Source: a virus (Duplodnaviria; Heunggongvirae; Uroviricota; Caudoviricetes). From it: a stretch of DNA of 19,746 nt. Shown here piece by piece: positions 932 to 19,746 of the stretch (the stretch's first letter is position 1; every line of letters starts with the position of its first letter). The position numbers were made by a program, and so were the translations under genes. The notes beneath the pieces were generated by a model. The model saw only the letters and a program-made list of their open reading frames with translations. It did not search any database and was not told where the DNA came from. The stretch is taken from IMG/VR virus record IMGVR_UViG_2671180921_000033, positions 1-19,746 of that record, one strand, 5' to 3'.

Positions 932-1333
932 TTATCGATACAGATAAGCCATCCCTATCCCGTGCAATACCGCCCGTTTAATATTCTCAAACTCATCTTC
1001 CGCGATCATAGGAACAATATAATTTCGCCCTTCCCAGGTTCTGGTTTTTATGCGATCCAGTCGGCTCAATGAAACCGTCATCAACATGTCACATTTTACC
1101 CAACAAGTAATATGCTCATTACCAGGAATGGGGTTTTCTGATAACTCATGATGGCAATCTCTGCGAGGGATCGGTTCAGTAGTGCTTATTGGTACCACTG
1201 TTACCAATTGATTGTTGTGTCTGTTTCTGGACACGACTACCACTGGCCTGACCTTGACTATTTCAGGAACAACCATTCCCCGAAAATCACACATTAAAAC
1301 AGAACGAACAGACGGCTGATACTTTAACACCAT
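932..1333 (-). CDS. MazF/PemK-like toxin (putative endoribonuclease), apparently without an adjacent antitoxin gene
   Basis: Translation from ATG at 1333: MVLKYQPSVRSVLMCDFRGMVVPEIVKVRPVVVVSRNRHNNQLVTVVPISTTEP... The pattern (RP-hydrophobic-VVS, NN, VVPITT) is typical of the MazF/PemK/Kid fold. The ORF-track version starts 26 codons upstream at a GTG. Confidence 0.5.
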   Translation of the reverse strand: MVLKYQPSVRSVLMCDFRGMVVPEIVKVRPVVVVSRNRHNNQLVTVVPISTTEPIPRRDCHHELSENPIPGNEHITCWVKCDMLMTVSLSRLDRIKTRTWEGRNYIVPMIAEDEFENIKRAVLHGIGMAYLYR

Positions 1334-1436
1334 AAATCTCTTTGCCTGATAATGACGACTTGTGAACTCCACTACAAACAAAATGATTCTGCTGAACAGG
1401 CAGTTCCGCACTGTGCATTATAACCTGTTAAGCCAA

Positions 1437-2377: not shown

Positions 2378-2764
2378 CTACATAATTCGTTCTACGTATC
2401 TGTCCATCTCCAGCCGGATATCAAGCATCATCAACATGCCATCGATAACCCCTTCCGCTTTCTGCAGGCGCTTGCCAATACAGGTATCCGAACACCCATG
2501 CTTTCGTGCCAGTCCCATAAAAGTCATTCCACCTACGTAATAATCCACCAACAAATCGTGCAAATCCTGATTTTTCTTGTTCAACCGGGCCATACAGCCA
2601 CAAATTATCATTGCATCATTATCAGAACACTGAGGACGTGATTTCACTTTCGGCGGGATTAATCCTTTAAAACCAGCAGCGATTGACGCCCATGACACAT
2701 CTTCGTGGTTGTTTGCAGCCCATGCCCCCCACCGCTCCATCACCTGCTGAATATCACGCACCAT
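2378..2764 (-). CDS. Late-gene antiterminator Q (phage antitermination protein Q family)
   Basis: Translation [61 protein letters not shown]...DIRLEMD closely resembles, from memory, the Q homologues of E. coli cryptic prophages (QuuD-type). ATG at 2764; the ORF-track version starts at the GTG at 2773. Confidence 0.75.
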
Positions 2765-3131
2765 CGTTATCACCTGTAATTTCGTAAACCTTCACACCCA
2801 GCCGACCACCAGGAACGACCTGACCGCGCACTATATTGATTTCATCAAACTGCTCGTCGTCTATGAGTAGTCCTGCATGGGTCAGTGCATCCAGTGGTGC
2901 TTTCAACAGATTGTCCAGGTCACGACGGCGCTTATCCGGTGGCTCCACAATCATCTTTATCGCCAGCCTTCCGGACAGGTTTAATTTCAGCCACTGCTGG
3001 CGAACAATTAGCGCCACATCACGGCGATAACGCTTTCCTGCTTCCGAGATGAAATACGTATTGCCATGACGTCGCCAGTAGGTATTCACCGTCGGCGGGT
3101 AAGGCAAAACAAATTCTATGCGTTCAGTCAT
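2754..3131 (-). CDS. rusA: RusA Holliday-junction resolvase
   Basis: Translation [43 protein letters not shown]...[29 protein letters not shown] carries the RusA hallmark motifs (PP-NxYx[11 protein letters not shown]). Its start abuts the DUF968 stop. Confidence 0.8.
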
Positions 3132-4587: not shown

Positions 4588-4920
4588 TTACGACACCTTC
4601 CTGAAAATTGCCAGCGGTGTCATACCATAGGAAGTTCCTCTCCTCCCAATCATTTCCCGAATACCTTCAAGCATATAATCTATTGCAGATCTGATTTCGT
4701 TAGAAGGAATTTCTGGCTCTGAAACAGTCTCGTCACTTATATCCGGGAGCGCATCTATAACACCGATGACATACCATTCACCACGTATTCTTGAACCATA
4801 CTTTAATGCAAGATTTCCCACATCCAAAGCTAAATCATCAGCCTTGACCGACATCCAGAATATATTTTCTTGATCATCAAGAAGCTCTATCTGTGTAGAG
4901 AACGGGAGTAAAGAAAACAT
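4588..4920 (-). CDS. Hypothetical protein (110 aa), third gene of an AT-rich 3-gene cassette
   Basis: ORF starts 13 nt after the stop of the upstream gene. Acidic protein (MFSLLPFSTQIELLDDQENIFWMSVKADDLALDVGNL...). No family recognised. Confidence 0.5.
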   Translation of the reverse strand: MFSLLPFSTQIELLDDQENIFWMSVKADDLALDVGNLALKYGSRIRGEWYVIGVIDALPDISDETVSEPEIPSNEIRSAIDYMLEGIREMIGRRGTSYGMTPLAIFRKVS

Positions 4921-4933
4921 GTTAGCAGCAATT

Positions 4934-5416
4934 TTAGTATGATAAATTTCTTCTTGAATGTTTTTTTTTCTGATTTGGTGATTTAGTCTGCTTTAGCTCT
5001 TTTCGTTTTGCATCTTTATACATAGGAAAAACATCATGAGCCATTTTCACATCAAATAATTTGATATGCCCTTTTACCATCACCAGACTTCCAATTTCTG
5101 CATTTTCTAAGCTCGTTGCCACCAAGCCTTGTTCGTGCAACTTATCAAAAAAATTTAATGGTAAAGACCATGATGAGTCAAAATGCCGCTCTTGCGTTCT
5201 TGCAAAAGAATCACCCGCATTTTTCCTGGCATTAAATAATGAAACGCCACCTTTAAGTTCATTTAATGAATGCTCAGAACTGGACGAGATTTGTTTTACA
5301 GCATTCAATACTCCCGATGGAAATAATTGCGCAGTGAAGTAACCTACGCGCTCTTTGTCAAGATAAAGGTAATCAAATAGTGAATCTACAGCTTGACAAT
5401 CTTGATCCATTGGCAT
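4934..5416 (-). CDS. Hypothetical protein (about 160 aa), second gene of the AT-rich 3-gene cassette
   Basis: Start ATGCCAATGG preceded by SD AAAGAGGTG, overlapping the upstream small ORF by 44 nt. Lys-rich C-terminal tail. No family recognised. Confidence 0.5.
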   Translation of the reverse strand: MPMDQDCQAVDSLFDYLYLDKERVGYFTAQLFPSGVLNAVKQISSSSEHSLNELKGGVSLFNARKNAGDSFARTQERHFDSSWSLPLNFFDKLHEQGLVATSLENAEIGSLVMVKGHIKLFDVKMAHDVFPMYKDAKRKELKQTKSPNQKKKHSRRNLSY

Positions 5417-5552
5417 GCACCTCTTTGATCCTTGCTTTTTCCTCAGCAATTTTTCTTTGCTTTTCTTCGATTTCATCATACATCAATTGCATTTCAGCGA
5501 TGTCGAACGGCTTTGAACCACTTTTAAGCGATCTCACCAGTTTGCGGATCAT
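5373..5552 (-). CDS. Small hypothetical protein (59 aa), first gene of the AT-rich 3-gene cassette
   Basis: ATG at 5552 preceded by SD AGAGGGGA. Translation MIRKLVRSLKSGSKPFDIAEMQLMYDEIEEKQRKIAEEKARIKEV. Below the ORF-track length cutoff. Confidence 0.35.
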   Translation of the reverse strand: MIRKLVRSLKSGSKPFDIAEMQLMYDEIEEKQRKIAEEKARIKEVHANGSRLSSCRFTI

Positions 5553-6245: not shown

Positions 6246-6764
6246 TTATTCAGTCAAGCTTTTGCGCCCGTACGCACTTCTCAAACTTGCACATGTTTCT
6301 CTAATCCTAACAATTTGCATACAATCAGGTCTTAGAGGTCGGTTGTGAACATCACTATCATATGTCATGGCTTGGCGTAATTCCTTAAACAATTTTGCCT
6401 TATATTTTTCACCACCGGCCCTTTCAATTTCTTTAGCGATAGTAGTTAAACTCTTAACCTCCCTACTCATTTTTGCTAACGCCAGTGTAGGTTCTTTATT
6501 ATTATCTTCAGCCCAGAACTCTAAGGCAAAATCCTCAAGCAACTCCAGTTTTTGTCTAAACTCACCGATCCATTCATTATGAGCATCTTTAATAGCATCT
6601 CCTCTACTTTTTGTGGTTTGGAGATAAGCAATATATGCCGTAATCCCCCATCCAACTAAAACTAAAAACCAAGTTACATACTGATTTTCATCTTTAAACA
6701 AAGAAAAAAACTTACACCAAAAGTCTGCACTCCAAGTACAGACCTGGATACTTGAATTAGCCAT
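6246..6764 (-). CDS. Single-pass membrane protein (172 aa), fourth gene of the STAS/GHKL cassette
   Basis: Hydrophobic helix WFLVLVGWGITAYIAYL near the N-terminus, followed by a charged helical region. Its start overlaps the upstream gene stop as ATGGCTAA. Confidence 0.55.
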   Translation of the reverse strand: MANSSIQVCTWSADFWCKFFSLFKDENQYVTWFLVLVGWGITAYIAYLQTTKSRGDAIKDAHNEWIGEFRQKLELLEDFALEFWAEDNNKEPTLALAKMSREVKSLTTIAKEIERAGGEKYKAKLFKELRQAMTYDSDVHNRPLRPDCMQIVRIRETCASLRSAYGRKSLTE

Positions 6765-7071
6765 GAGATACCTTTATAGCGTCCTCGATATATTCATTTA
6801 TCTCGTCAATTAACTCAGGTTCTTCTTCTGAGATAAATTTAATCCCTTTAACCTTATCAGGACTCACGCCACGCCTAATCAATCCGCCAAAGCACTCCTC
6901 CAAGAAAGAAGAACCATACCCCTCCGTTCCATCAAGGTCTATTGTTAGATCTGGTGAATGTTTAAGCTCTCTTTCTACCCACTCACGAAACTCCTCACCA
7001 GAAGCGGGCCCCAATCTTTTAAAACGAGGTCCTGGGCAAGGATAACGACTGGCTACTTTTATAATTTTCAT
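6757..7071 (-). CDS. Small STAS-like (DUF4325-like) protein, 104 aa
   Basis: ATG at 7071, 1 nt after the GHKL gene stop. Segment DLTIDLDGTEGYGSSFLEECFGGLIRRG resembles the STAS-like core of anti-sigma-antagonist-type proteins. The domain call is by eye. Confidence 0.45.
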   Translation of the reverse strand: MKIIKVASRYPCPGPRFKRLGPASGEEFREWVERELKHSPDLTIDLDGTEGYGSSFLEECFGGLIRRGVSPDKVKGIKFISEEEPELIDEINEYIEDAIKVSHG

Positions 7072-7072
7072 A

Positions 7073-7552
7073 CTACTCAGTTTCCACCTCACAAGGAATT
7101 GTCCATTCAATTATAGTACCATTAACAGAGCTTTTGTAATCTCTAAGCACTTCGTTAATAATGCCAGTTTTCCCTTTGTAAATATAGCGCCCTTTTGATG
7201 AAAAAATCCCCATAAAACCATCACCTATTGAATCGATTACCGATTTGATATCATTCAAGCCTTTACCTCGGTTCAGCTCCCCAGTCCTCGTTTCCTGAAG
7301 TAACGTGGAAGCCTTTATATAAGTAGAATCCTTTACATTTGCTAATGGAACTCTAAGTTTTTTGAAGATGTTCATTAGCACACTTACACCTTGTGTTTTA
7401 GGCAATGTTGAAGGTATTCCCACTCCTTTATCACATATTACCACTGTAAGATTTTTGTCATGTATGCCAGCAAAGGTCCACCACTTAGCTGTTTCGTCAT
7501 CTTCCGTATGCATTAAATCATCAACATAAGCATGCTCGACAGAATTAGACAT
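7073..7552 (-). CDS. GHKL-family ATPase, anti-sigma-factor/serine-kinase-like (159 aa)
   Basis: Bergerat-fold motifs in order: N-box NSVEHAY, G1 VVICDKGVGIP, G2 RGKGLNDI, G3 NGTIIEW. Size similar to RsbW/SpoIIAB-type kinases. Confidence 0.65.
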   Translation of the reverse strand: MSNSVEHAYVDDLMHTEDDETAKWWTFAGIHDKNLTVVICDKGVGIPSTLPKTQGVSVLMNIFKKLRVPLANVKDSTYIKASTLLQETRTGELNRGKGLNDIKSVIDSIGDGFMGIFSSKGRYIYKGKTGIINEVLRDYKSSVNGTIIEWTIPCEVETE

Positions 7553-7556
7553 GGCC

Positions 7557-8240
7557 TCAGTAAAGCCACGGTATAATTTTTTTTGATGATTTTCTTTCTA
7601 ACTCTTTTTTTATTTCCACCATCATTTCTTTTGCTAAAAGAGGCTCAGAACAAGAACCTGATGTATATTTCCAAAAAGTCACATCATCATAACTTTCAGT
7701 TTCTCTTTTAGGTTTCCTTAATAGATCATAGAAACCGACTTGATTCAAAATGCTTTCAATTTTCTTGTCTTTCGGATGTGAAAACCCTATGGCATTTACT
7801 CCAAATTCACTTTTCTTAATAAGCACATCAACTTCAGCGAGAAAAGATAACATAGCAGCTGCACTTATATATTTAGTTGAAGAAAAATCTATATAAACAC
7901 GATTATTCTTCAACACGCAATCGCGTAAATTATTTAAAAATTTATTCATGATTTCAAAATCACGATCGTTGTAATAATTAATAGATATCGGAGCAGAAAA
8001 AACCACCCTTTTATTACTTGTTGTCAACTTTTTCTTCGAGACTCGTAGCTTACGAGTGCGTTTGTAATATTCCAGTTTTCTCTTCGCATTTTCTACTCCT
8101 TCCCAATCCGTGCTTTTCAGAGAATTAAATATCCCCCTCTTCAGTTTCGAAACTTGCCCGCGATAGTTTAGTTTTTGAACTTTTCTTCTTTTTTGCAGAT
8201 TCATAAATATTTTCACATTTGATAACATCGCAGATATCAT
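7557..8240 (-). CDS. Protein with a basic N-terminal region and a STAS-like domain (227 aa), first gene of the cassette
   Basis: Lys/Arg-rich N-terminus (KRRKVQKLNYRGQVSKLKRG...KRTRKLRVSKKKL), then RVYIDFSSTKYISAAAMLSFLAEVDVL...NAIGFSHPKDKKIESILNQVGFYDLL, which resembles a STAS/anti-sigma-antagonist fold. No clear SD, so the start is uncertain. Confidence 0.5.
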   Translation of the reverse strand: MISAMLSNVKIFMNLQKRRKVQKLNYRGQVSKLKRGIFNSLKSTDWEGVENAKRKLEYYKRTRKLRVSKKKLTTSNKRVVFSAPISINYYNDRDFEIMNKFLNNLRDCVLKNNRVYIDFSSTKYISAAAMLSFLAEVDVLIKKSEFGVNAIGFSHPKDKKIESILNQVGFYDLLRKPKRETESYDDVTFWKYTSGSCSEPLLAKEMMVEIKKELERKSSKKIIPWLY

Positions 8241-12697: not shown

Positions 12698-12889
12698 ATG
12701 GGTACAGCCCTTTCTCCGATAGTTTCAGAATTCGAAACTACCGAACAAGAAAACAGTTACAACGAATGGTTGCGCACTAAAGTAACGTCAAGCCTTGCAG
12801 GCACTCGCCCCGCAATTCCACATGACGAGGTAATGGCTGAAATGGAAAATCTTATTGCTCAAATTGCTGTAACTAACAGGAGCGAGTAA
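12698..12889 (+). CDS. PaaA2-like antitoxin
   Basis: 63 aa, MGTALSPIVSEFETTEQENSYNEWLRTKVTSSLAGTRPAIPHDEV; strong SD AAGAGGAG. Resembles, from memory, the PaaA2 antitoxin of E. coli three-component ParE systems. Confidence 0.65.
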   Translation: MGTALSPIVSEFETTEQENSYNEWLRTKVTSSLAGTRPAIPHDEVMAEMENLIAQIAVTNRSE

Positions 12890-13176
12890 TGTTACCCATT
12901 TTATGGCTACCGTCTGCTCGCGATGATTTGCGTCAGATCATAACTTACATCGCCAAGGAGAACCCACCGGCAGCACGTAGACTAAAAATACGCATTGAAA
13001 CATCGGTATTACCTCTATCTGAGCATCCGTACTTATATCCACCAAGCGAACGGGTTTCTGGATTGAGAGAGATCGTGACCCACCCTAACTACATAATCCT
13101 GTACAGAGTAGCTGCTTCAAGCATTGAGATTGTAAGCGTGACACATTCTCGGCGACAATTTCCCTTCTCTATCTGA
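12889..13176 (+). CDS. ParE/RelE-family toxin
   Basis: 95 aa, MLPILWLPSARDDLRQIITYIAKENPPAARRL...REIVTHPNYIILYRV. Its start overlaps the antitoxin stop by 1 nt (TAATG). Confidence 0.8.
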   Translation: MLPILWLPSARDDLRQIITYIAKENPPAARRLKIRIETSVLPLSEHPYLYPPSERVSGLREIVTHPNYIILYRVAASSIEIVSVTHSRRQFPFSI

Positions 13177-13612: not shown

Positions 13613-13759
13613 ATGAACGAAACAGAATTAAAACACGTTATCGCTCTACTTCTGGAGGATACAAAACGCCTCCAGCAACTGGAACCAAATGCAGGCACTG
13701 AAGCCCGCATCTTGCTGGCATTGCGCGCTATTGAGTCAGGTCGTGATGATGAAGGTTAA
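13613..13759 (+). CDS. Small early-left protein (48 aa)
   Basis: ATG 2 nt after the previous stop. Translation MNETELKHVIALLLEDTKRLQQLEPNAGTEARILLALRAIESGRDDEG. Below the ORF-track cutoff. Confidence 0.3.
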   Translation: MNETELKHVIALLLEDTKRLQQLEPNAGTEARILLALRAIESGRDDEG

Positions 13760-14040
13760 GCATCATCTAAGTTTTTTACATAGCGCCCATTAGATTCGGT
13801 AACAAGAACTCCGGGATTTTTCTTAACTTTTGAGGCCACTGATTCAGCAAGGTTAGCAACAGATTCTTTGTCTTCATTCTTGCTTGAATATGTATATTCG
13901 GCATTAGGAAGTCGGTAGGTGTTCCCTGAAGAGGTTGTAATCGTTCTGGAGAATCCCTTTGCTTCCATTCGTTCATGAAGCTTATCGTAATCAGCGGAAC
14001 TGGAATCGCGAAGTTCGATCCTGACTGTAAATTTTGCCAT
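13756..14040 (-). CDS. Hypothetical protein (94 aa), oppositely oriented moron inside the early-left arm
   Basis: ATG at 14040 preceded by SD GGAGGA. Translation MAKFTVRIELRDSSSADYDKLHERMEAKGFSRTITTSSGNTYRLP... Its 3' end overlaps the convergent plus-strand ORF by 4 nt. Confidence 0.5.
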   Translation of the reverse strand: MAKFTVRIELRDSSSADYDKLHERMEAKGFSRTITTSSGNTYRLPNAEYTYSSKNEDKESVANLAESVASKVKKNPGVLVTESNGRYVKNLDDA

Positions 14041-14626
14041 TTTATCCTCCATTAAGGTTCTGGGTTAGAAATGGAGACCAACACGCTGCTACGTGTGGTC
14101 GTGCGCCGGACACGGATAAGAATCCGGCACTGACAGTTTACTGAAAAGATATATCCCTGAAAAATCAGGGCATAACACGAAAGCGCACGGCGAAGTCCTT
14201 CTCCCTTAGAGCTGTCGTTAAATTTAATTCGACCGTGCGCTTCCGGTTGTGGCAATCCGCGAAATGGCGCGGCGGTAAGTATGGCAGGGGTTATTTCTTT
14301 CTCCTGGTTAGGACGCCGGGTTGTCAGGTTGACCATACGCCTGAGTGACAACCCCGTCACAACATCTCCATGTTTGTTGGTTGGCACCGGGAACTTTGGC
14401 GGAATCAGTTTTTGCTTCGCTACTGCTCTTCCGCCCTTTTTTAAAGTGAATTTTGTGATGCGGTGAATGCGGCTCAGCGCACGCGGAACAGTTAAAAACA
14501 CAAGTGTTATGGGTGAATCATCCGGCGTTAATTGTTAACTGGTTAACGTCACCTGGAGGCACCAGGCACCGCATCAACAAAGTTCACTTCGGTGATGAAA
14601 GGTAGAGAAAATGTTGAATGTAGCTA

Positions 14627-14655
14627 TTGAAAACCTGAACGGGTGGAATTATAGT
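14627..14655 (+). promoter_or_regulatory. Second PR'-like promoter (homologous to the region downstream of Q)
   Basis: TTGAAA - 17 nt - TATAGT. The following roughly 250 bp align in patches with the reverse complement of 2100..2370. Confidence 0.4.
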
Positions 14656-14715
14656 GCATCCGCACCTCATAAAACGGGTGTCGGGCGTGGAAACCCGATG
14701 TTCACTAACGCGCAT

Positions 14716-14739
14716 AACCGCGCTCAGGCGGTTTTTTTA
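14716..14739 (+). terminator. tR'-like intrinsic terminator, second copy
   Basis: AACCGC-GCTCAG-GCGGTT followed by TTTTTTTA; near-identical to the minus-strand terminator at 2261..2283. Confidence 0.6.
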
Positions 14740-14907
14740 TGCGTAATGCACAGCCACATTCAGATTATGGTGGGACGTGCAGGGCAGCCGCAAGGCTGGC
14801 CGGGTTCGTTAGTGACCGGTATTTCCACCCCTGTACGTCTCACCACCCTTATGGTCGTGGAAAACCTTGGTGGTGAGTTAATCAAATTCACTAACGAGGC
14901 TGCTATC

Positions 14908-15462
14908 ATGGCTACTATCCCTACCCTTTCTCACCCTGACGTAACCATCAAAAATGGTCGCGCTGTCACTACGTCTGTTGCGGTTGCAGAGTTCTTCCGC
15001 AAAATGCACAAGGACGTTTTGCGCAAAATTGAAACGCTAGAATGCTCTGAAGATTTTAACGAGCGCAATTTTACGCCCGTTACCTACACCGACGCCAAAG
15101 GCGAAAAACGACCAATGTACCAAATCACCAAAAACGGCTTCGTTTTCCTGGTGATGGGTTTCACCGGCAAAAAAGCCGCCGCATTCAAAGAAGCCTACAT
15201 CGCTGAGTTCGACCGCATGGAGGCAGAGCTGCGTCAGAATAACACCCCGCCCGCTGACAAAATTATTCCGGGTGATGGTCGCACTCTCGTTGTTCACTTC
15301 GACGAACACGGCAACATCAGATTCACCGAAACCGTTCCTGACGGCGCTCTCGTCTGTACCCTGGATACCTTCCGCTTTTATCTGGAGAAACAGGGCTGGA
15401 CTCTTGTTAACCGTAGCGCAATTAAAAATATGACCGTCGAACAGTTGCTGGGTATTAAATAG
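14908..15462 (+). CDS. Rha-family phage regulatory protein (antirepressor)
   Basis: ATG at 14908 with SD GAGG. Translation MATIPTLSHPDVTIKNGRAVTTSVAVAEFFRKMHKDVLRKIETL...FNERNFTPVTY...ITKNGFVFLVMGFTGKKAAAFKEAYIAEF matches the Rha pattern. The ORF-track 5' extension to 14611 runs through a promoter and terminator and is rejected. Confidence 0.85.
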   Translation: MATIPTLSHPDVTIKNGRAVTTSVAVAEFFRKMHKDVLRKIETLECSEDFNERNFTPVTYTDAKGEKRPMYQITKNGFVFLVMGFTGKKAAAFKEAYIAEFDRMEAELRQNNTPPADKIIPGDGRTLVVHFDEHGNIRFTETVPDGALVCTLDTFRFYLEKQGWTLVNRSAIKNMTVEQLLGIK

Positions 15463-15508: not shown

Positions 15509-15730
15509 ATGATTGCTCATCACTTCGGAACCGATGAAATACCGCGTCAGTGTGTAACGCCCGGTGATTACGTTATGTATCAGGGAAGAACGTATGTTGC
15601 ATCTGTCAATGAAATCAAAAAACACCGGCTTTATATCCGGGGATTCTGCACTCAGCATTGCATTAAGGACACCATGATTAAGGTCTTCCTCGGTCGTGAC
15701 GGATTGCCCGCAAAAGCGGAATCATGGTGA
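15509..15730 (+). CDS. Small protein (73 aa) at the position and size of Rac KilR
   Basis: Strong SD AAGGAG 6 nt upstream of the ATG. Translation [32 protein letters not shown]... The KilR-like call rests on size and synteny, not on a verified alignment. Confidence 0.45.
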
Positions 15731-15871
15731 CGGGCAATTAAATGCGGAATCAGATTATATTTCCGTTATGACCGGATAAAACACAAAATTTATAAAACAC
15801 ACATTAACCATGAATTTATGCCAGCAATGGCAGGGATTTGTTCACCCTGAAAATGGTAATGAGGTTTATCA

Positions 15872-18325
15872 ATGAACGCTGATAATAAAGAAATTGCACT
15901 ATATTACGAAGCCAAAAATGACAAAGTCAGAAAACGCCTTGGAATTAAAGGCGGTTTTTGCTGGCGCACAGCAAAAAAATTATCGGTTGCAATATCACAC
16001 GGTATTGTCGCAATGGACGATGCCGGATTTGACGAAGAGGATTTTAAAAAACCCGTCCGCGTCCATTTACCCGTTGTGAATGACCTTCCTCCGGAAGGCG
16101 TGTTTGATACCGAATTCTGCAACCGATACGAAAAAGGCGGGGAAGATGGTATCACAATGGTACTTATCGCACCCTCGCCCTCTGTTCAGGACAAACCAGC
16201 CAGCACTGACAATACCAACGTCAACGGCGAAGACATGACTGAGATTGAGGACAATATGCTTCTGCCGGTTTCAGGTCAGATTCTGCCTGTTCGATGGCTG
16301 GCACAGCACGGCAGCGAAAAACCGGTCACGCACGTTTCACGGGACGAGCTGCGCGCATTACATAACGCACAGGAAGAAAAACTTCCCACTGTTACCGTGC
16401 TGGCCATCTCAAATAAAGCAGTGCAACTCGAACCGCTGGAGATTCGGGATTTGTACAAACTGGTGCGGGACACTGACAAGGTTTTTCCCGCCCCCGTAAA
16501 TTCAGACCTGGGGTTTATGACCGCCTTCATCGAAGCATACCTGGACGCTGACTACACCGATCGCGGTCTGCTTACAAAAGAGTGGATGAAGGGAAATCGT
16601 GTTTCGCGCATCAGCCGCACACCATCCGGCGCTAACGCTGGCGGCGGTATTCTTACCGATCGCGGCGAAGGTTTTGTACACGATAGTGCATCACTGGCGC
16701 GCGACGTAGCCACTGGCGTGCTGACCCGCTCAATGGACGTGGACATTTACAATCTTCATCCCGCGCACGCTAAACGCATTGAGGAAATTGTCGCTGAAAA
16801 TAAACCTCCCTTTTCTGTGTTTTTCAGCAAATTCATCACCATGCCTGGCGGGATGGACTATTCCCGCGCCATCGTGGTTGCCTCCGTGAAAGAAGCACCG
16901 GTTGGTATAGAGGCTATGCCCCACCGCGTCACCGAATATCTGAATAAAGTGCTGACCGAAACCGATCATGCCAACCCTGATCCGGAAATCGTGGATATTG
17001 CCTGCGGTCGCTCCTCCGCCCCGATGCCGCAGCGTGTAACAGAAGAAGAAAAACAGGATGATGAAGAAAAACCGCAACCATCTGGTGCAATGGCAGATGA
17101 ACAGGCAACGGCTGAAGCAATGGAGCCGGATACAACTGAACATCGCCAGAACACGCAATCGCTTGATGCTCAGGCACAGGTAAATTCTGTTGATGCGAAA
17201 TATCAGGAACTGCGGGCAGAACTCCATGAAGCCCGGAAAAACATTCCATCAAAAAATCCTGTCGATGCCGATAAATTGCTTGCTGCATCACGTGGTGAAT
17301 TTGTTGAGGGGATTAGCGACCCGAACGATCCGAAATGGGTGAAGGGGATTGCAACACACGATACTGTGAACCAGTGCCAGCAAGAATCGGAACAGAACGA
17401 CCAGAAAGCGGGACAAAACAGCCCGGATGCGCAACAAAACGAGCCAGAAGCGATACATCCGGAGCCGGAAGCGCAACACGTGCAGGAAAAACCATGTAAT
17501 GCTTGCGGGAAACATGGCGGCGGCAACTGCCCTGACTGTGGCACAGTGATGGGTGACGCAACACACCAGGAAATGTTCAATGAAGAGAATCAGCCTGAAG
17601 TTCAGGAAAATAATCCGGAGGAAATGGAAGGCTCTGCGCATCAGCACAAGGAGAACTCTGGTGGCAATCAGCATCATGCCAGCGATAGTGAAACTGGCGA
17701 GACGGCAAATCCCTTAATTAAGGTGACTGGTCATCATAAATATAAGTCCACCAGCAAAACGTGGTATCACCTGATGATCGACCTTGAGACGATGGGAACC
17801 AACACCAATGCGCCCATCGTGGTTATTGGGGCGGTTTTCTTCGACCCGCAGACAGGGAAAATCGGGCCGGTATTTTATATCGTTATCAGTCTGACTGACG
17901 CAATGAATACAGGAGCTGTTCCTGACGGTGGAACCATCGAATGGTGGCTGAAGCAGTCCAGTGAAGCCAGAGCTGCCATTTTAACAGACCAGGTGAAACT
18001 GAAAGATGCCCTTTTGCGCTTTCGGGAATTCGTCAATGAACACTCTGATGAAAAATTCGTTCAGGTGTGGGGGAATGGTGCAACGTTCGATAACTCAATT
18101 TTGCGCACCTCATACGAACGCCTGGGCATCCCCTGCCCGTGGCATTACAGCAACGATCGTGATGTACGCACGATCGTTGAGCTGGGGAAAACCATAGACT
18201 TCAATGCCAGAAGCGTAATTCCATTCGAAGGCGTACCCCACAATGCGCTGGATGACGCCCTTCACCAGGCAAAATACGTTACAGCCACTATTCAAAAACT
18301 GATCCCGAGTCAGGCTGATTTTTAA
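15872..18325 (+). CDS. RecE-like large protein whose C-terminal domain is a DEDDh 3'-5' exonuclease (817 aa)
   Basis: N-terminal two-thirds resemble, from memory, the Rac RecE N-terminal region (for example [50 protein letters not shown]). The last roughly 190 aa carry DEDDh motifs [20 protein letters not shown] and [12 protein letters not shown]. Confidence 0.7.
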
Positions 18326-18389: not shown

Positions 18390-18638
18390 ATGGCAAGACT
18401 TATTCTGCTCACTGAGTGGGCAAAAGAGGAATTCGGCGATCCGATCCCTGCTCCGGGCACGTTAAGTAAATACGCTAAAGCCGGAATGATATTTCCTCTT
18501 CCCAAAAAAGTTGGAAGACGCTGGCGAGTGGATCCGCGAGCTCGCTTTGTCGGAATGGTAAACAAGCCGGAGGTGATCGCCACAGATCACCCAGCATTGA
18601 AGAGGATACTGGAAGATGGCGCGCCCGCGAAAATATAA
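18390..18638 (+). CDS. xis: Excisionase (lambda Xis-like)
   Basis: 82 aa, LLTEWAKEEFG...GMIFPLPKKVGRRWRVDPRARF parallels the lambda Xis core. 3' end overlaps the integrase start. Confidence 0.75.
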   Translation: MARLILLTEWAKEEFGDPIPAPGTLSKYAKAGMIFPLPKKVGRRWRVDPRARFVGMVNKPEVIATDHPALKRILEDGAPAKI

Positions 18639-19746
18639 AACTGATGTTCCGGGATTATCTCCGTATTTTGACAAAAGAAATAACAAAGTTTACTGGCGTT
18701 ACAAGCATCCCATAACAGGCAAAAATCACGGTCTCGGCAGTATTGAGCAGAAACTGGCAGAAACTATTGCAGCAGAAGCGAACAGCCGTCTTGCCAGGCA
18801 GCAAATGGAACAAATGCTCAGTCTGCAGGAGAAAATTATTAGAGATACCGGCGGTTCATCAACCGTTTCCATTTTTCTGAATAATTACAGAAAAATTCAA
18901 CAGGAAAGATATGAAAACGGAGAGATCAAACTCAACACGCTGAAACAAAAAGCGGCCCCTCTCAGGGTATTTGATGAACATTTTGGCACCAGACCGTTAG
19001 ATGCCATAACCGTAAAAGATGTGGTATCGGTGCTGGAAGAGTACAAGGCCAGAGGACATAACAGAATGGGACAAATTTTCAGGAAGGTATTGATCGATGT
19101 TTTCCGGGAGGCTCAACAAACGGGTGATGTCCCGCCAGGCTTTAACCCGGCTGAATCGGCAAAAAAACCGCAAGTGCGGATATCAAGACAGCGACTGACT
19201 TTTGATGAGTGGATGATGATTTATAACGCAGCGGAAAAGGATGGTTACTTTTTACAGCGCGGCATGCTGCTGGCACTGATGACGGGCCAGCGTCTTTCGG
19301 ATATTTGCAAAATGCAGTTTTCGGATATCCGGGATGGTTATCTTCATGTCGAACAGCAAAAAACAGGAGCCCGGATAGCCATTCCTCTGGCTCTGCGTTG
19401 CGACAAATTAAATCTTACCCTGGGTGACGTGGTGTCATCCTGTCGTGATTACATCCTTAGTCCGTGGTTATTGCACCATCATCACGCTAAGGGGATGGGT
19501 AAGCGCGGCGGGATGGTTAAACCAGCAACATTAACAGTCGCATTTAAAAAAGCCCGGGATTCTGTGGATTACAACTGGCGTGCTAATGGCACGCCACCCT
19601 CTTTCCATGAGCAAAGATCTTTATCAGAACGATTGTTCAGAGAACAGGGAATTGATACCAAAATTTTGCTGGGCCATTCGAATCAAAAAATGACCGATAT
19701 TTACAACGACGCACGCGGTAAAGAATGGAAAAAACTGGTTATTTGA
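18616..19746 (+). CDS. int: Tyrosine integrase (lambda Int family)
   Basis: 376 aa with catalytic-region motifs TGQRLSDI, FHEQRSLS and LLGHSNQKMTDIY. Stop codon at the window edge. Confidence 0.9.
   Translation: MARPRKYKTDVPGLSPYFDKRNNKVYWRYKHPITGKNHGLGSIEQKLAETIAAEANSRLARQQMEQMLSLQEKIIRDTGGSSTVSIFLNNYRKIQQERYENGEIKLNTLKQKAAPLRVFDEHFGTRPLDAITVKDVVSVLEEYKARGHNRMGQIFRKVLIDVFREAQQTGDVPPGFNPAESAKKPQVRISRQRLTFDEWMMIYNAAEKDGYFLQRGMLLALMTGQRLSDICKMQFSDIRDGYLHVEQQKTGARIAIPLALRCDKLNLTLGDVVSSCRDYILSPWLLHHHHAKGMGKRGGMVKPATLTVAFKKARDSVDYNWRANGTPPSFHEQRSLSERLFREQGIDTKILLGHSNQKMTDIYNDARGKEWKKLVI

Follow-up and report, generated by a model that had tools for sequence, protein, structure and literature searches.

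What does an exonuclease of one fold do at the end of a RecE protein, in the place of RecE's own nuclease and with no annealing protein beside it? The question is raised by a single gene (15872..18325, plus strand) of IMG/VR virus record IMGVR_UViG_2671180921_000033, assigned to the Caudoviricetes; the whole 19,746-nt stretch analysed is referred to as the window. The gene encodes 817 aa in which a RecE-like N-terminal region is fused to a predicted 3′-5′ exonuclease domain of the DEDDh type. RecE and RecT are a workhorse of recombineering. A 2023 review (PMC11611040) still lists the role of the large N-terminal region of RecE as unknown. The fusion is real, widespread and testable. It may be an annealase-independent enzyme of the phage early-left operon that trims DNA at 3′ ends, a reading held tentatively and at a little short of an even chance.

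The open reading frame (ORF) starts with ATG, runs for 817 codons without an internal stop and has a GAGG about 9 nt 5′ of the start. The exact 817-aa protein is present on 19 public contigs, and the fusion is therefore not an assembly artefact. Amino acid numbers refer to this protein unless another is named, and all features within the gene lie on the plus strand.

The RecE-like scaffold and the point of exchange

A first-pass annotation, made without database searches, had called the N-terminal two-thirds RecE-like, and alignment confirms it. BLASTP aligns residues 58-616 with residues 50-591 of E. coli K-12 RecE at 72% identity over 559 aligned residues; nothing significant is found past residue 616, leaving RecE 592-866 unaligned. 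Nucleotide homology to K-12 recE has its last base at window position 17718 (residue ~616, RecE ~591), and the blastn comparison with the Rac locus and the BLASTP end points place the swap junction at 17716..17720. The nuclease domain of RecE has been placed at residues 564-866 (PMC11611040), and limits of about 564/606-866 are used here. The annotation's wording, a domain swap on the RecE scaffold, is accurate because the junction sits at the N-terminal edge of that nuclease domain. The NCBIfam RecE equivalog NF007259 gives the same picture, with residues 1-617 aligning to positions 1-603 of its 877; the whole protein scores 1024 bits, under the cutoff of 1269, because the third of the model that represents the nuclease finds no match.

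Many homologues are named 'exodeoxyribonuclease VIII' or 'RecE family exodeoxyribonuclease', names that would suit an ordinary RecE (exonuclease VIII, 5′-3′) with a nuclease domain too divergent to be recognised. The domain and fold assignments refute this explanation, which retains almost no probability. Beyond the missing similarity to RecE 592-866 and the NF007259 score under cutoff, the C-terminus scores 1.2e-67 against a DEDDh family, carries all DEDDh motifs and has a DnaQ-like predicted fold. A sequence search of the PDB likewise gives no match to the solved RecE nuclease, in keeping with the earlier claim that the C-terminus is not the nuclease expected of RecE.

In an AF2 model of residues 1-400 (mean pLDDT 79), for which 32 diverse homologues were aligned, a small alpha/beta domain precedes two helical ones; how the three pack against each other is uncertain (pTM 0.40). 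The first full-length model, based on a shallow alignment, was poor at residues 100-270 and this improved once diverse homologues were added for residues 1-400. The alpha/beta domain (aa 4-100, 15881..16171) is an allele unlike K-12 RecE before residue 58. It is followed by the Pfam match PF06630 Exonuc_VIII (aa 56-189, 16037..16438, E 1e-26) and by helical domain I (aa 128-250, 16253..16621, pLDDT 84-93). A glycine-rich motif, D230-R-G-L-L-x-K-E-W-x-x-G-N-R...R249-T..S-G-x-N-A-G-G-G..T-D-R264 (16559..16663), spans the boundary between the helical domains; its columns are invariant or nearly so in two family alignments (A2, A4), and confidence in the model is low for its loop at residues 251-259. 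Helical domain II (aa 260-389, 16649..17038, pLDDT 86-96) is also common to the Qin/Tritos-type proteins (hhalign, Tritos aa 242-353, probability 96%, E 2.7e-9).

The DEDDh domain

The predicted DexA-like DEDDh 3′-5′ exonuclease domain occupies residues 633-812 (17768..18307). The three motifs that the annotation had read in the C-terminal ~190 aa are where it put them: IDLET (D637, E639), GATFD (D740) and H790-N-A-L-D-D795, which fits H-x-A-x-x-D. The domain search that had been proposed as a check, with DnaQ-like profiles, returns PF16473 Rv2179c-like at residues 633-805 (E 1.2e-67, 227.5 bits against a cutoff of 27, profile positions 2-175 of 177). ExoI (D637-L-E639, 17780..17788) aligns with D7/E9 of phage T4 DexA, the catalytic ExoII residue D740 (18089..18091) with D119, and ExoIII (H790 to D795, 18239..18256) with H186/D191. 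Among 92 family representatives the ExoI aspartate is kept in 91 and the glutamate in 88, the ExoII aspartate in 90, and the ExoIII histidine and aspartate in 92 and 90. The fusion thus has all five catalytic residues, each kept in at least 96% of the representatives.

Structure prediction, the other check proposed, gives residues 633-812 a DnaQ/RNase H-like fold (block-mean pLDDT about 64-92). Foldseek places T4 DexA first (E 2.8e-8), then REXO2/Orn, a Cas-associated DnaQ domain and RNase T; the matches to DexA, REXO2, Orn and RNase T all have probability 1.00. By sequence, the only PDB matches are T4 DexA 8KEL/8KEN (8KEL E 3.5e-8), with no Rv2179c or Orn chain at E <= 0.01. By analogy with DexA and its E. 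coli homologue EcD, the domain would act in the 3′-5′ direction on DNA.

The same neighbours invite a second reading, in which the domain is a 3′-5′ exonuclease of the Rv2179c, Orn or REXO2 type that acts on RNA 3′ ends, on nanoRNAs or on signals of immunity made of linear nucleotides or DNA (retron msDNA and oligo-dA are examples), in phage counter-defence or RNA processing. The Pfam family is named for the exoribonuclease Rv2179c, PGAP calls many homologues '3′-5′ exoribonuclease', and the Foldseek neighbours after DexA are REXO2, oligoribonucleases and RNase T. Rv2179c of M. tuberculosis, the founder of PF16473, shares the family and the DEDDh fold and is, per Pfam, a small stand-alone exoribonuclease. 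The fusion domain is closer to DexA, since the PDB search returned DexA and no Rv2179c chain. The nearest tested members, DexA and its E. coli homologue EcD, are DNases (PMC12153337), and the scaffold otherwise carries DNA enzymes. A role on RNA or oligonucleotides is accordingly judged improbable.

An internal start at M635, yielding a free DEDDh domain, was considered and rejected, as no convincing Shine-Dalgarno sequence lies 5′ of it; database proteins that begin at M635 probably derive from fragments.

Comparison with T4 DexA and E. coli EcD

T4 DexA (exonuclease A) is the closest solved relative of residues 633-812 by both sequence and fold. DexA is a stand-alone protein of 227 aa with extra loops, encoded by a virulent phage, whereas the fusion carries the domain as the C-terminal module of 817 aa in a temperate phage. 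The structure of DexA has been solved, and both DexA and E. coli EcD show DNA exonuclease activity (Kang et al. 2025, NAR gkaf501, PMC12153337). EcD digests DNA containing 5-hydroxymethylcytosine (5hmC), spares unmodified double-stranded DNA (dsDNA) and, when plasmid-borne, protects against T4 (PMC12153337). Bacterial DexA homologues are most frequent in Escherichia and Citrobacter, and the paper makes no mention of prophages, RecE or fusions (PMC12153337).

These results suggest a defence role, in which the fusion would be a prophage nuclease for exclusion or defence, of the DexA/EcD ('HREX') kind, that selectively degrades the modified DNA, with 5hmC or another modification, of superinfecting T-even-like phages, and in which the scaffold would position or regulate it. 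The activity of EcD, and the peak of DexA homologues in the very genera where the fusions abound, speak for such a role. The residues linked to it fit less well. The primer given in the supplement to the EcD paper leads to a stand-alone ORF of 189 aa with A78, as described for EcD, on six viral contigs. This EcD-like protein has the same Pfam family and catalytic residues as the fusion domain and both are found on E. coli mobile DNA, but the two are only 34% identical, and just a 21-codon open frame lies 5′ of the EcD-like ORF. EcD as a fragment of the fusion was accordingly rejected. DexA W152, the residue that the paper requires for 5hmC recognition by stacking, corresponds to S760 in the fusion, and the DexA 'tetramer' residue D90 is retained as D712; EcD is the opposite, keeping the tryptophan (W132) and lacking the D90 equivalent (A78), a loss linked to a dimer-only state. 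DexA D169 aligns to T774 in a gapped, poorly aligned stretch where the EcD-like sequence fails as well, and the alignment is unreliable there. Judged from these positions, the fusion has the catalytic machinery without the signature proposed for 5hmC-selective defence. A defence role would also leave unexplained why the scaffold is common to RecE, RecT and other recombination-type modules. All considered, it appears unlikely, and is still the strongest of the competing explanations.

The EcD-like ORF (its product starts MIDTETLGNG) lies on IMG/VR viral contigs L018, L023, L033, L034, L036 and L039. This location suggests that EcD itself is carried by viral or prophage DNA, a point not discussed in the EcD paper.

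An early-left operon without an annealase

The window covers the early region of a lambdoid prophage of the Rac type, with the order kil, fusion gene, xis, int. The kil gene (15509..15730, plus strand) encodes a KilR-type FtsZ inhibitor (phrog_294, E 3.7e-32; PF27398 KilR in the identical locus). The excisionase gene (18390..18638, plus strand; PF07825, E 7.9e-7) follows the fusion gene and overlaps the gene for a lambda-type integrase (18616..19746, plus strand; PF09003 and PF00589). On the 19 contigs with the identical protein, ompW and yciC adjoin int, and in one such locus (L006) the ompW flank is 99.9% identical to E. coli; the flank places the prophage next to ompW in E. coli.

The first-pass annotation had noted that no annealing-protein gene follows the fusion, only xis and then int. 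That observation holds and extends to the rest of the early region: from the gene for the Q antiterminator (2378..2773, minus strand), taken as the boundary of the search, to int, no ORF matches RecT, Bet, Erf, Sak or another annealase in Pfam or PHROGs. Two-component recombinases pair an exonuclease with an annealase such as RecT/Redbeta, Erf, Sak/Rad52-like, Sak4 or Gp2.5, and none of these genes is found in the early region of the window.

The closest comparison is with K-12 RecE (exonuclease VIII) of the Rac prophage, a protein of 866 aa with RecT as its partner. Rac has the order kilR-ydaE-racC-recE-recT-ralR-rcbA-xisR-intR, and the fusion gene fills the recE-recT slot as kil-[fusion]-xis-int, in the same type of prophage, 3′ of kil and 5′ of xis-int. 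The two proteins share the PF06630 region, the helical domains, the acidic linker with its conserved peptide and a CxxC..CxxC motif. They differ in that the fusion has a DEDDh domain for the PD-(D/E)XK nuclease, with a predicted polarity of 3′-5′ versus 5′-3′, lacks recT, ralR and rcbA 3′ of it, and carries a different allele over the first ~57 aa. Lambda Red (Exo and Beta) is encoded in the early-left operon of lambdoid phages, 5′ of xis-int. It is a positional analogue of the fusion, which differs in nuclease fold, in predicted polarity (opposite) and in having no annealase.

In the 140 bp that separate kil from the fusion gene (15731-15871), a crude consensus scan detects nothing promoter-like. 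Given the gene order and this lack of a promoter-like site after kil, the fusion gene is probably co-transcribed with kil in the early-left operon. Placement in a repressed operon without a promoter-like site of its own argues against the defence role, as does PADLOC, which recognises no known defence system and gives the fusion just a weak, generic match to a Cas-associated DEDDh domain (E 7e-5).

Distribution and selection

The fusion is the commonest form of its family in E. coli and not a one-off. Among 5426 complete E. coli genomes, DNA of the DEDDh domain is found in 4199 (~77%; median 2, up to 8 copies) and DNA of the RecE nuclease domain in 1743 (32%; median one copy). This changes the picture of the family, in which the DEDDh form, often multicopy, is set against canonical RecE. 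The whole fusion gene is matched by megablast at >=80% coverage in 1168 of the 5426, the best at 88.8% identity, and RefSeq labels these copies '3′-5′ exonuclease' or 'exonuclease'. High prevalence and copy number of this order resemble prophage accessory or defence cargo and are a point in favour of a defence nuclease. Unlike in the window, recT underlies the match at 12 of 12 E. coli loci with a true RecE nuclease domain, sampled across the ranking. The phages Evi and Tritos, like the PPompW prophages, have an exonuclease gene of ~820 aa; in the two phages it adjoins kil or dicB-ydfD on one side and xis or int on the other, and recT is absent. In the complete 46-kb Tritos genome no annealase is annotated anywhere, and vB_EcoM-606R7 has the same annealase-free arrangement with its fusion gene annotated in two pieces. 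Fusions of PF06630 and PF16473 in Citrobacter, Salmonella, Atlantibacter and Phytobacter are 33-38% identical to the window protein; the Atlantibacter locus uses the same slot, again without an annealase.

The architecture is already catalogued, as the Pfam pair PF06630 and PF16473, PHROGs 607/2082 and PGAP names, and is not new as a sequence object. A literature search, in a library with few of the subscription journals, found no paper on the fusion, the missing annealase, the predominance over RecE or the linker peptide, and no functional study of a RecE-N/DEDDh fusion.

Rates of substitution were estimated by the Nei-Gojobori method between the window gene and the closest E. coli allele from a complete genome. 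The dN/dS ratio is 0.19 in the alpha/beta domain, 0.17 in the helical region and 0.10 in the DEDDh domain; the disordered linkers, at 0.28-0.30, lie above the folded domains. Values of 0.10-0.19 in the folded domains mark purifying selection, and the gene, judged from these ratios, is a selected protein and not a scar. The alternative, a decaying recE remnant illegitimately joined to a neighbouring exonuclease gene, is largely refuted and very improbable. It can draw on the mosaic nature of prophage early regions, on two split genes elsewhere in the window and on those E. coli copies that are interrupted by insertion sequences (IS) or annotated in two pieces. Against it stand the intact frame and the identical protein on 19 contigs, the conserved catalytic residues, the persistence of fusions down to ~35% identity in the four genera named above and the presence of the gene in phages deposited as complete genomes.

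Some fusion copies are annotated as two pieces or interrupted by an IS3-family element (H38, H41; L005 6001-8444). K-12 YdfE looks like a truncated remnant of such a gene (PF27432 YdfE_C matches in P0131) and, from the Qin gene order, is presumably a truncated remnant of a Qin/Tritos-type exonuclease.

The tether and its conserved peptide

Scaffold and nuclease are joined by an acidic tether rich in Q, E and P (aa 390-632, 17039..17767). It is predicted to be disordered, with pLDDT < 50 at residues 389-448, 454-542 and 546-627, and contains 48 D/E against 22 K/R. Embedded in this otherwise fast-evolving linker is a nearly invariant peptide of 25 aa (aa 468-492, 17273..17347) with the consensus LAAxRGE[F/Y]VxGISDPxDPKW. 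The peptide is present in 30 of ~57 long family representatives, together with every kind of C-terminus, and also in K-12 RecE at residues ~459-483 and in P0121-P0239, P0389 and P0441. In comparisons with Evi and Tritos it is 96-100% identical while the N-terminal 467 residues are only 16-29% identical. Its dN/dS of 0.00-0.07 goes with a dS of 0.38-0.75, as high as in the flanks; the combination of a low ratio and a normal dS indicates selection on the peptide and not recent exchange of DNA. Such conservation makes the peptide a candidate docking motif for a putative partner.

A zinc-knuckle-like motif, C-x2-C-x8-C-x2-C (aa 542-557, 17495..17542), lies further along the tether and is also present in K-12 RecE. 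Only linkers of the E. coli type have it; the fusions of Citrobacter, Atlantibacter and others do not, and because of this restriction it is regarded as accessory and was rejected as a core feature.

Exchange of modules on the scaffold

The swap in the window is a single case of a wider shuffling of N- and C-modules around the conserved peptide, as the comparison of family sequences indicates. HMMER, run exhaustively over 1.84 billion cluster representatives, found 11,727 matches, the long ones of which were mapped for domains by local phmmer. Many clusters at 50% identity, down to ~35% identity, join the RecE-type N-domain to a DEDDh domain, and many clusters join it to the PD-(D/E)XK nuclease of RecE. 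Other partners occur as well. In P0123 (703 aa) a RecT domain (PF03837, E 1e-42) follows directly on the N-terminus and linker of RecE, and the nuclease domain is missing; the protein is a natural fusion or the product of an in-frame deletion. In the Cronobacter-type proteins P0137 and P0168 (775/814 aa) the scaffold carries a C-terminal ~260 aa of PHROG 2489/7838, labelled 'exonuclease' by PHROGs. Its sequence (…KKSLTDATKKALSSLGFCADIFMGLYDN…) looks Rad52/Sak-like, and its sole Pfam match, PF04098 Rad52_Rad22, is sub-threshold (E 0.11); the scaffold may here be fused to an annealase. In Cedecea P0395 (736 aa; L013 7001-9211) and in P0203 the scaffold bears a helical C-terminus of ~370 aa (PHROG 26058), in the kil..xis-int slot, for which Pfam and the PDB give no match.

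The N-module is exchanged too. The proteins of Evi and Tritos keep the peptide and the DEDDh domain, but their N-terminus is another one, without a PF06630 match, in which only helical domain II is detectably common. The Qin/Tritos-type exonuclease (~823 aa) occupies the same slot (dicB-ydfD, exo, xis-int) as the fusion gene, with a peptide 96-100% and a DEDDh domain 70-90% identical to those of the fusion and a related helical domain II; its first ~240 aa are unrelated in sequence, with no PF06630 match. By its domain arrangement, then, the family is modular: an N-module, a tether bearing the peptide and a C-module.

These arrangements allow a broader, more speculative reading, which is thought possible and still rather unlikely. 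The RecE/YdfE-type scaffold with its peptide would be a lambdoid delivery platform that brings interchangeable DNA-end enzymes to one conserved target, probably of the host. Its cargo may include the 5′-3′ PD-(D/E)XK nuclease, the 3′-5′ DEDDh nuclease, RecT, a possible Rad52-like annealase and the helical module. The DEDDh form would be a polarity-reversed, annealase-independent system for end processing or recombination; it would have escaped notice because the RecE form and the truncated YdfE are all that K-12 has.

A possible role in processing DNA ends

For the fusion in the window, the leading candidate remains a 3′-end DNA-trimming enzyme that works without an annealase. From the gene order and the lack of a promoter of its own, the protein would be made together with Kil, Xis and Int upon prophage induction or infection. 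The conservation of the scaffold and linker peptide suggests that they recruit the enzyme, be it to its substrate or to a conserved partner in the host, or hold an oligomer together. The tethered DEDDh domain would then remove nucleotides at free DNA 3′ ends, as its catalytic pentad and the biochemistry of DexA and EcD lead one to expect. The fusion would in this way be the phage's own DNA-end processor in the recE-recT position, and the 5′ tails so exposed might be dealt with by host functions or by spontaneous annealing; this last step, the role as end processor included, is the least secure of the scheme. It is not part of an exonuclease-annealase pair of the RecET or Red type, because no phage annealase is present. 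That the scaffold is also found fused to the RecE nuclease and to RecT ties it to DNA-end metabolism.

Several points weigh against this proposal. A 3′-5′ exonuclease leaves 5′ tails, an unusual substrate for RecA or phage annealases. The polarity and substrate of the fusion are extrapolated from relatives, and the names given by Pfam and often by PGAP point to an exoribonuclease. The scaffold has no informative structural match, and a Foldseek search of the predicted viral structures of BFVD returns nothing at E <= 0.001. The promoter scan behind the assumed co-transcription is crude. The sole tested E. coli homologue, EcD, 34% identical and stand-alone, behaves as an anti-T4 defence nuclease and not a recombination enzyme (PMC12153337).

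The RecE N-terminal region emerges as an independent conserved module. Its partners include at least two nucleases whose predicted polarities are opposite, as well as other domains of DNA metabolism, and the one invariant peptide is part of every combination. The finding bears on the long-open question of the role of the RecE N-terminus, for which the partner of the peptide and swaps of the C-module offer an experimental handle. It also sets in context the proposal that bacterial DexA homologues serve in defence, as many of those in E. coli and Citrobacter are the C-terminal domains of prophage early-operon proteins. Should the enzyme indeed support annealase-free end joining or recombination, it could become a new tool.

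Other features of the prophage

The remaining genes of the window fall on both strands. The minus strand encodes, besides the Q antiterminator, RusA, DUF968, an accessory island, DUF977, DUF1627, a DnaC-like loader, an O-like initiator, a YdaT-like protein and a YdaS/Cro-like protein. On the plus strand a CI-like repressor, a ParE toxin and an Ash/Rha protein are followed by Kil, the fusion, the excisionase and the integrase. Between DUF977 and DUF968, two pairs of neighbouring ORFs on the minus strand (4588-5479 and 7073-8240) each match the two halves of one PHROG (phrog_9699/DUF6414 and phrog_3364) and are probably split pseudogenes. They flank an ORF for a DUF4325 STAS-like protein (6757-7110), and the island may be a decayed defence or accessory cassette.

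Several genes of the toxin-antitoxin type are found in this one prophage. A ParE-family toxin gene (12889-13176, plus strand) lies directly after the CI-like repressor gene. In an identical public locus a gene for a PaaA2-type antitoxin of 63 aa is placed just 5′ of ParE (a small ORF expected at ~12698-12889 in the window), which makes the two a PaaA2/ParE toxin-antitoxin pair of the immunity region. An ORF for a MazF/PemK-like toxin (932-1411, minus strand, E 8e-14) lies beyond Q, and an ORF of 98 aa (13756-14052, minus strand) has a weak GhoS-like match (E 2e-4). Upstream of kil, an ORF of 283 aa (14611-15462, plus strand) combines an Ash-family N-terminus (aa 14-109 of its product) with a Rha domain (aa 120-204), and is annotated as a single gene in public records too.

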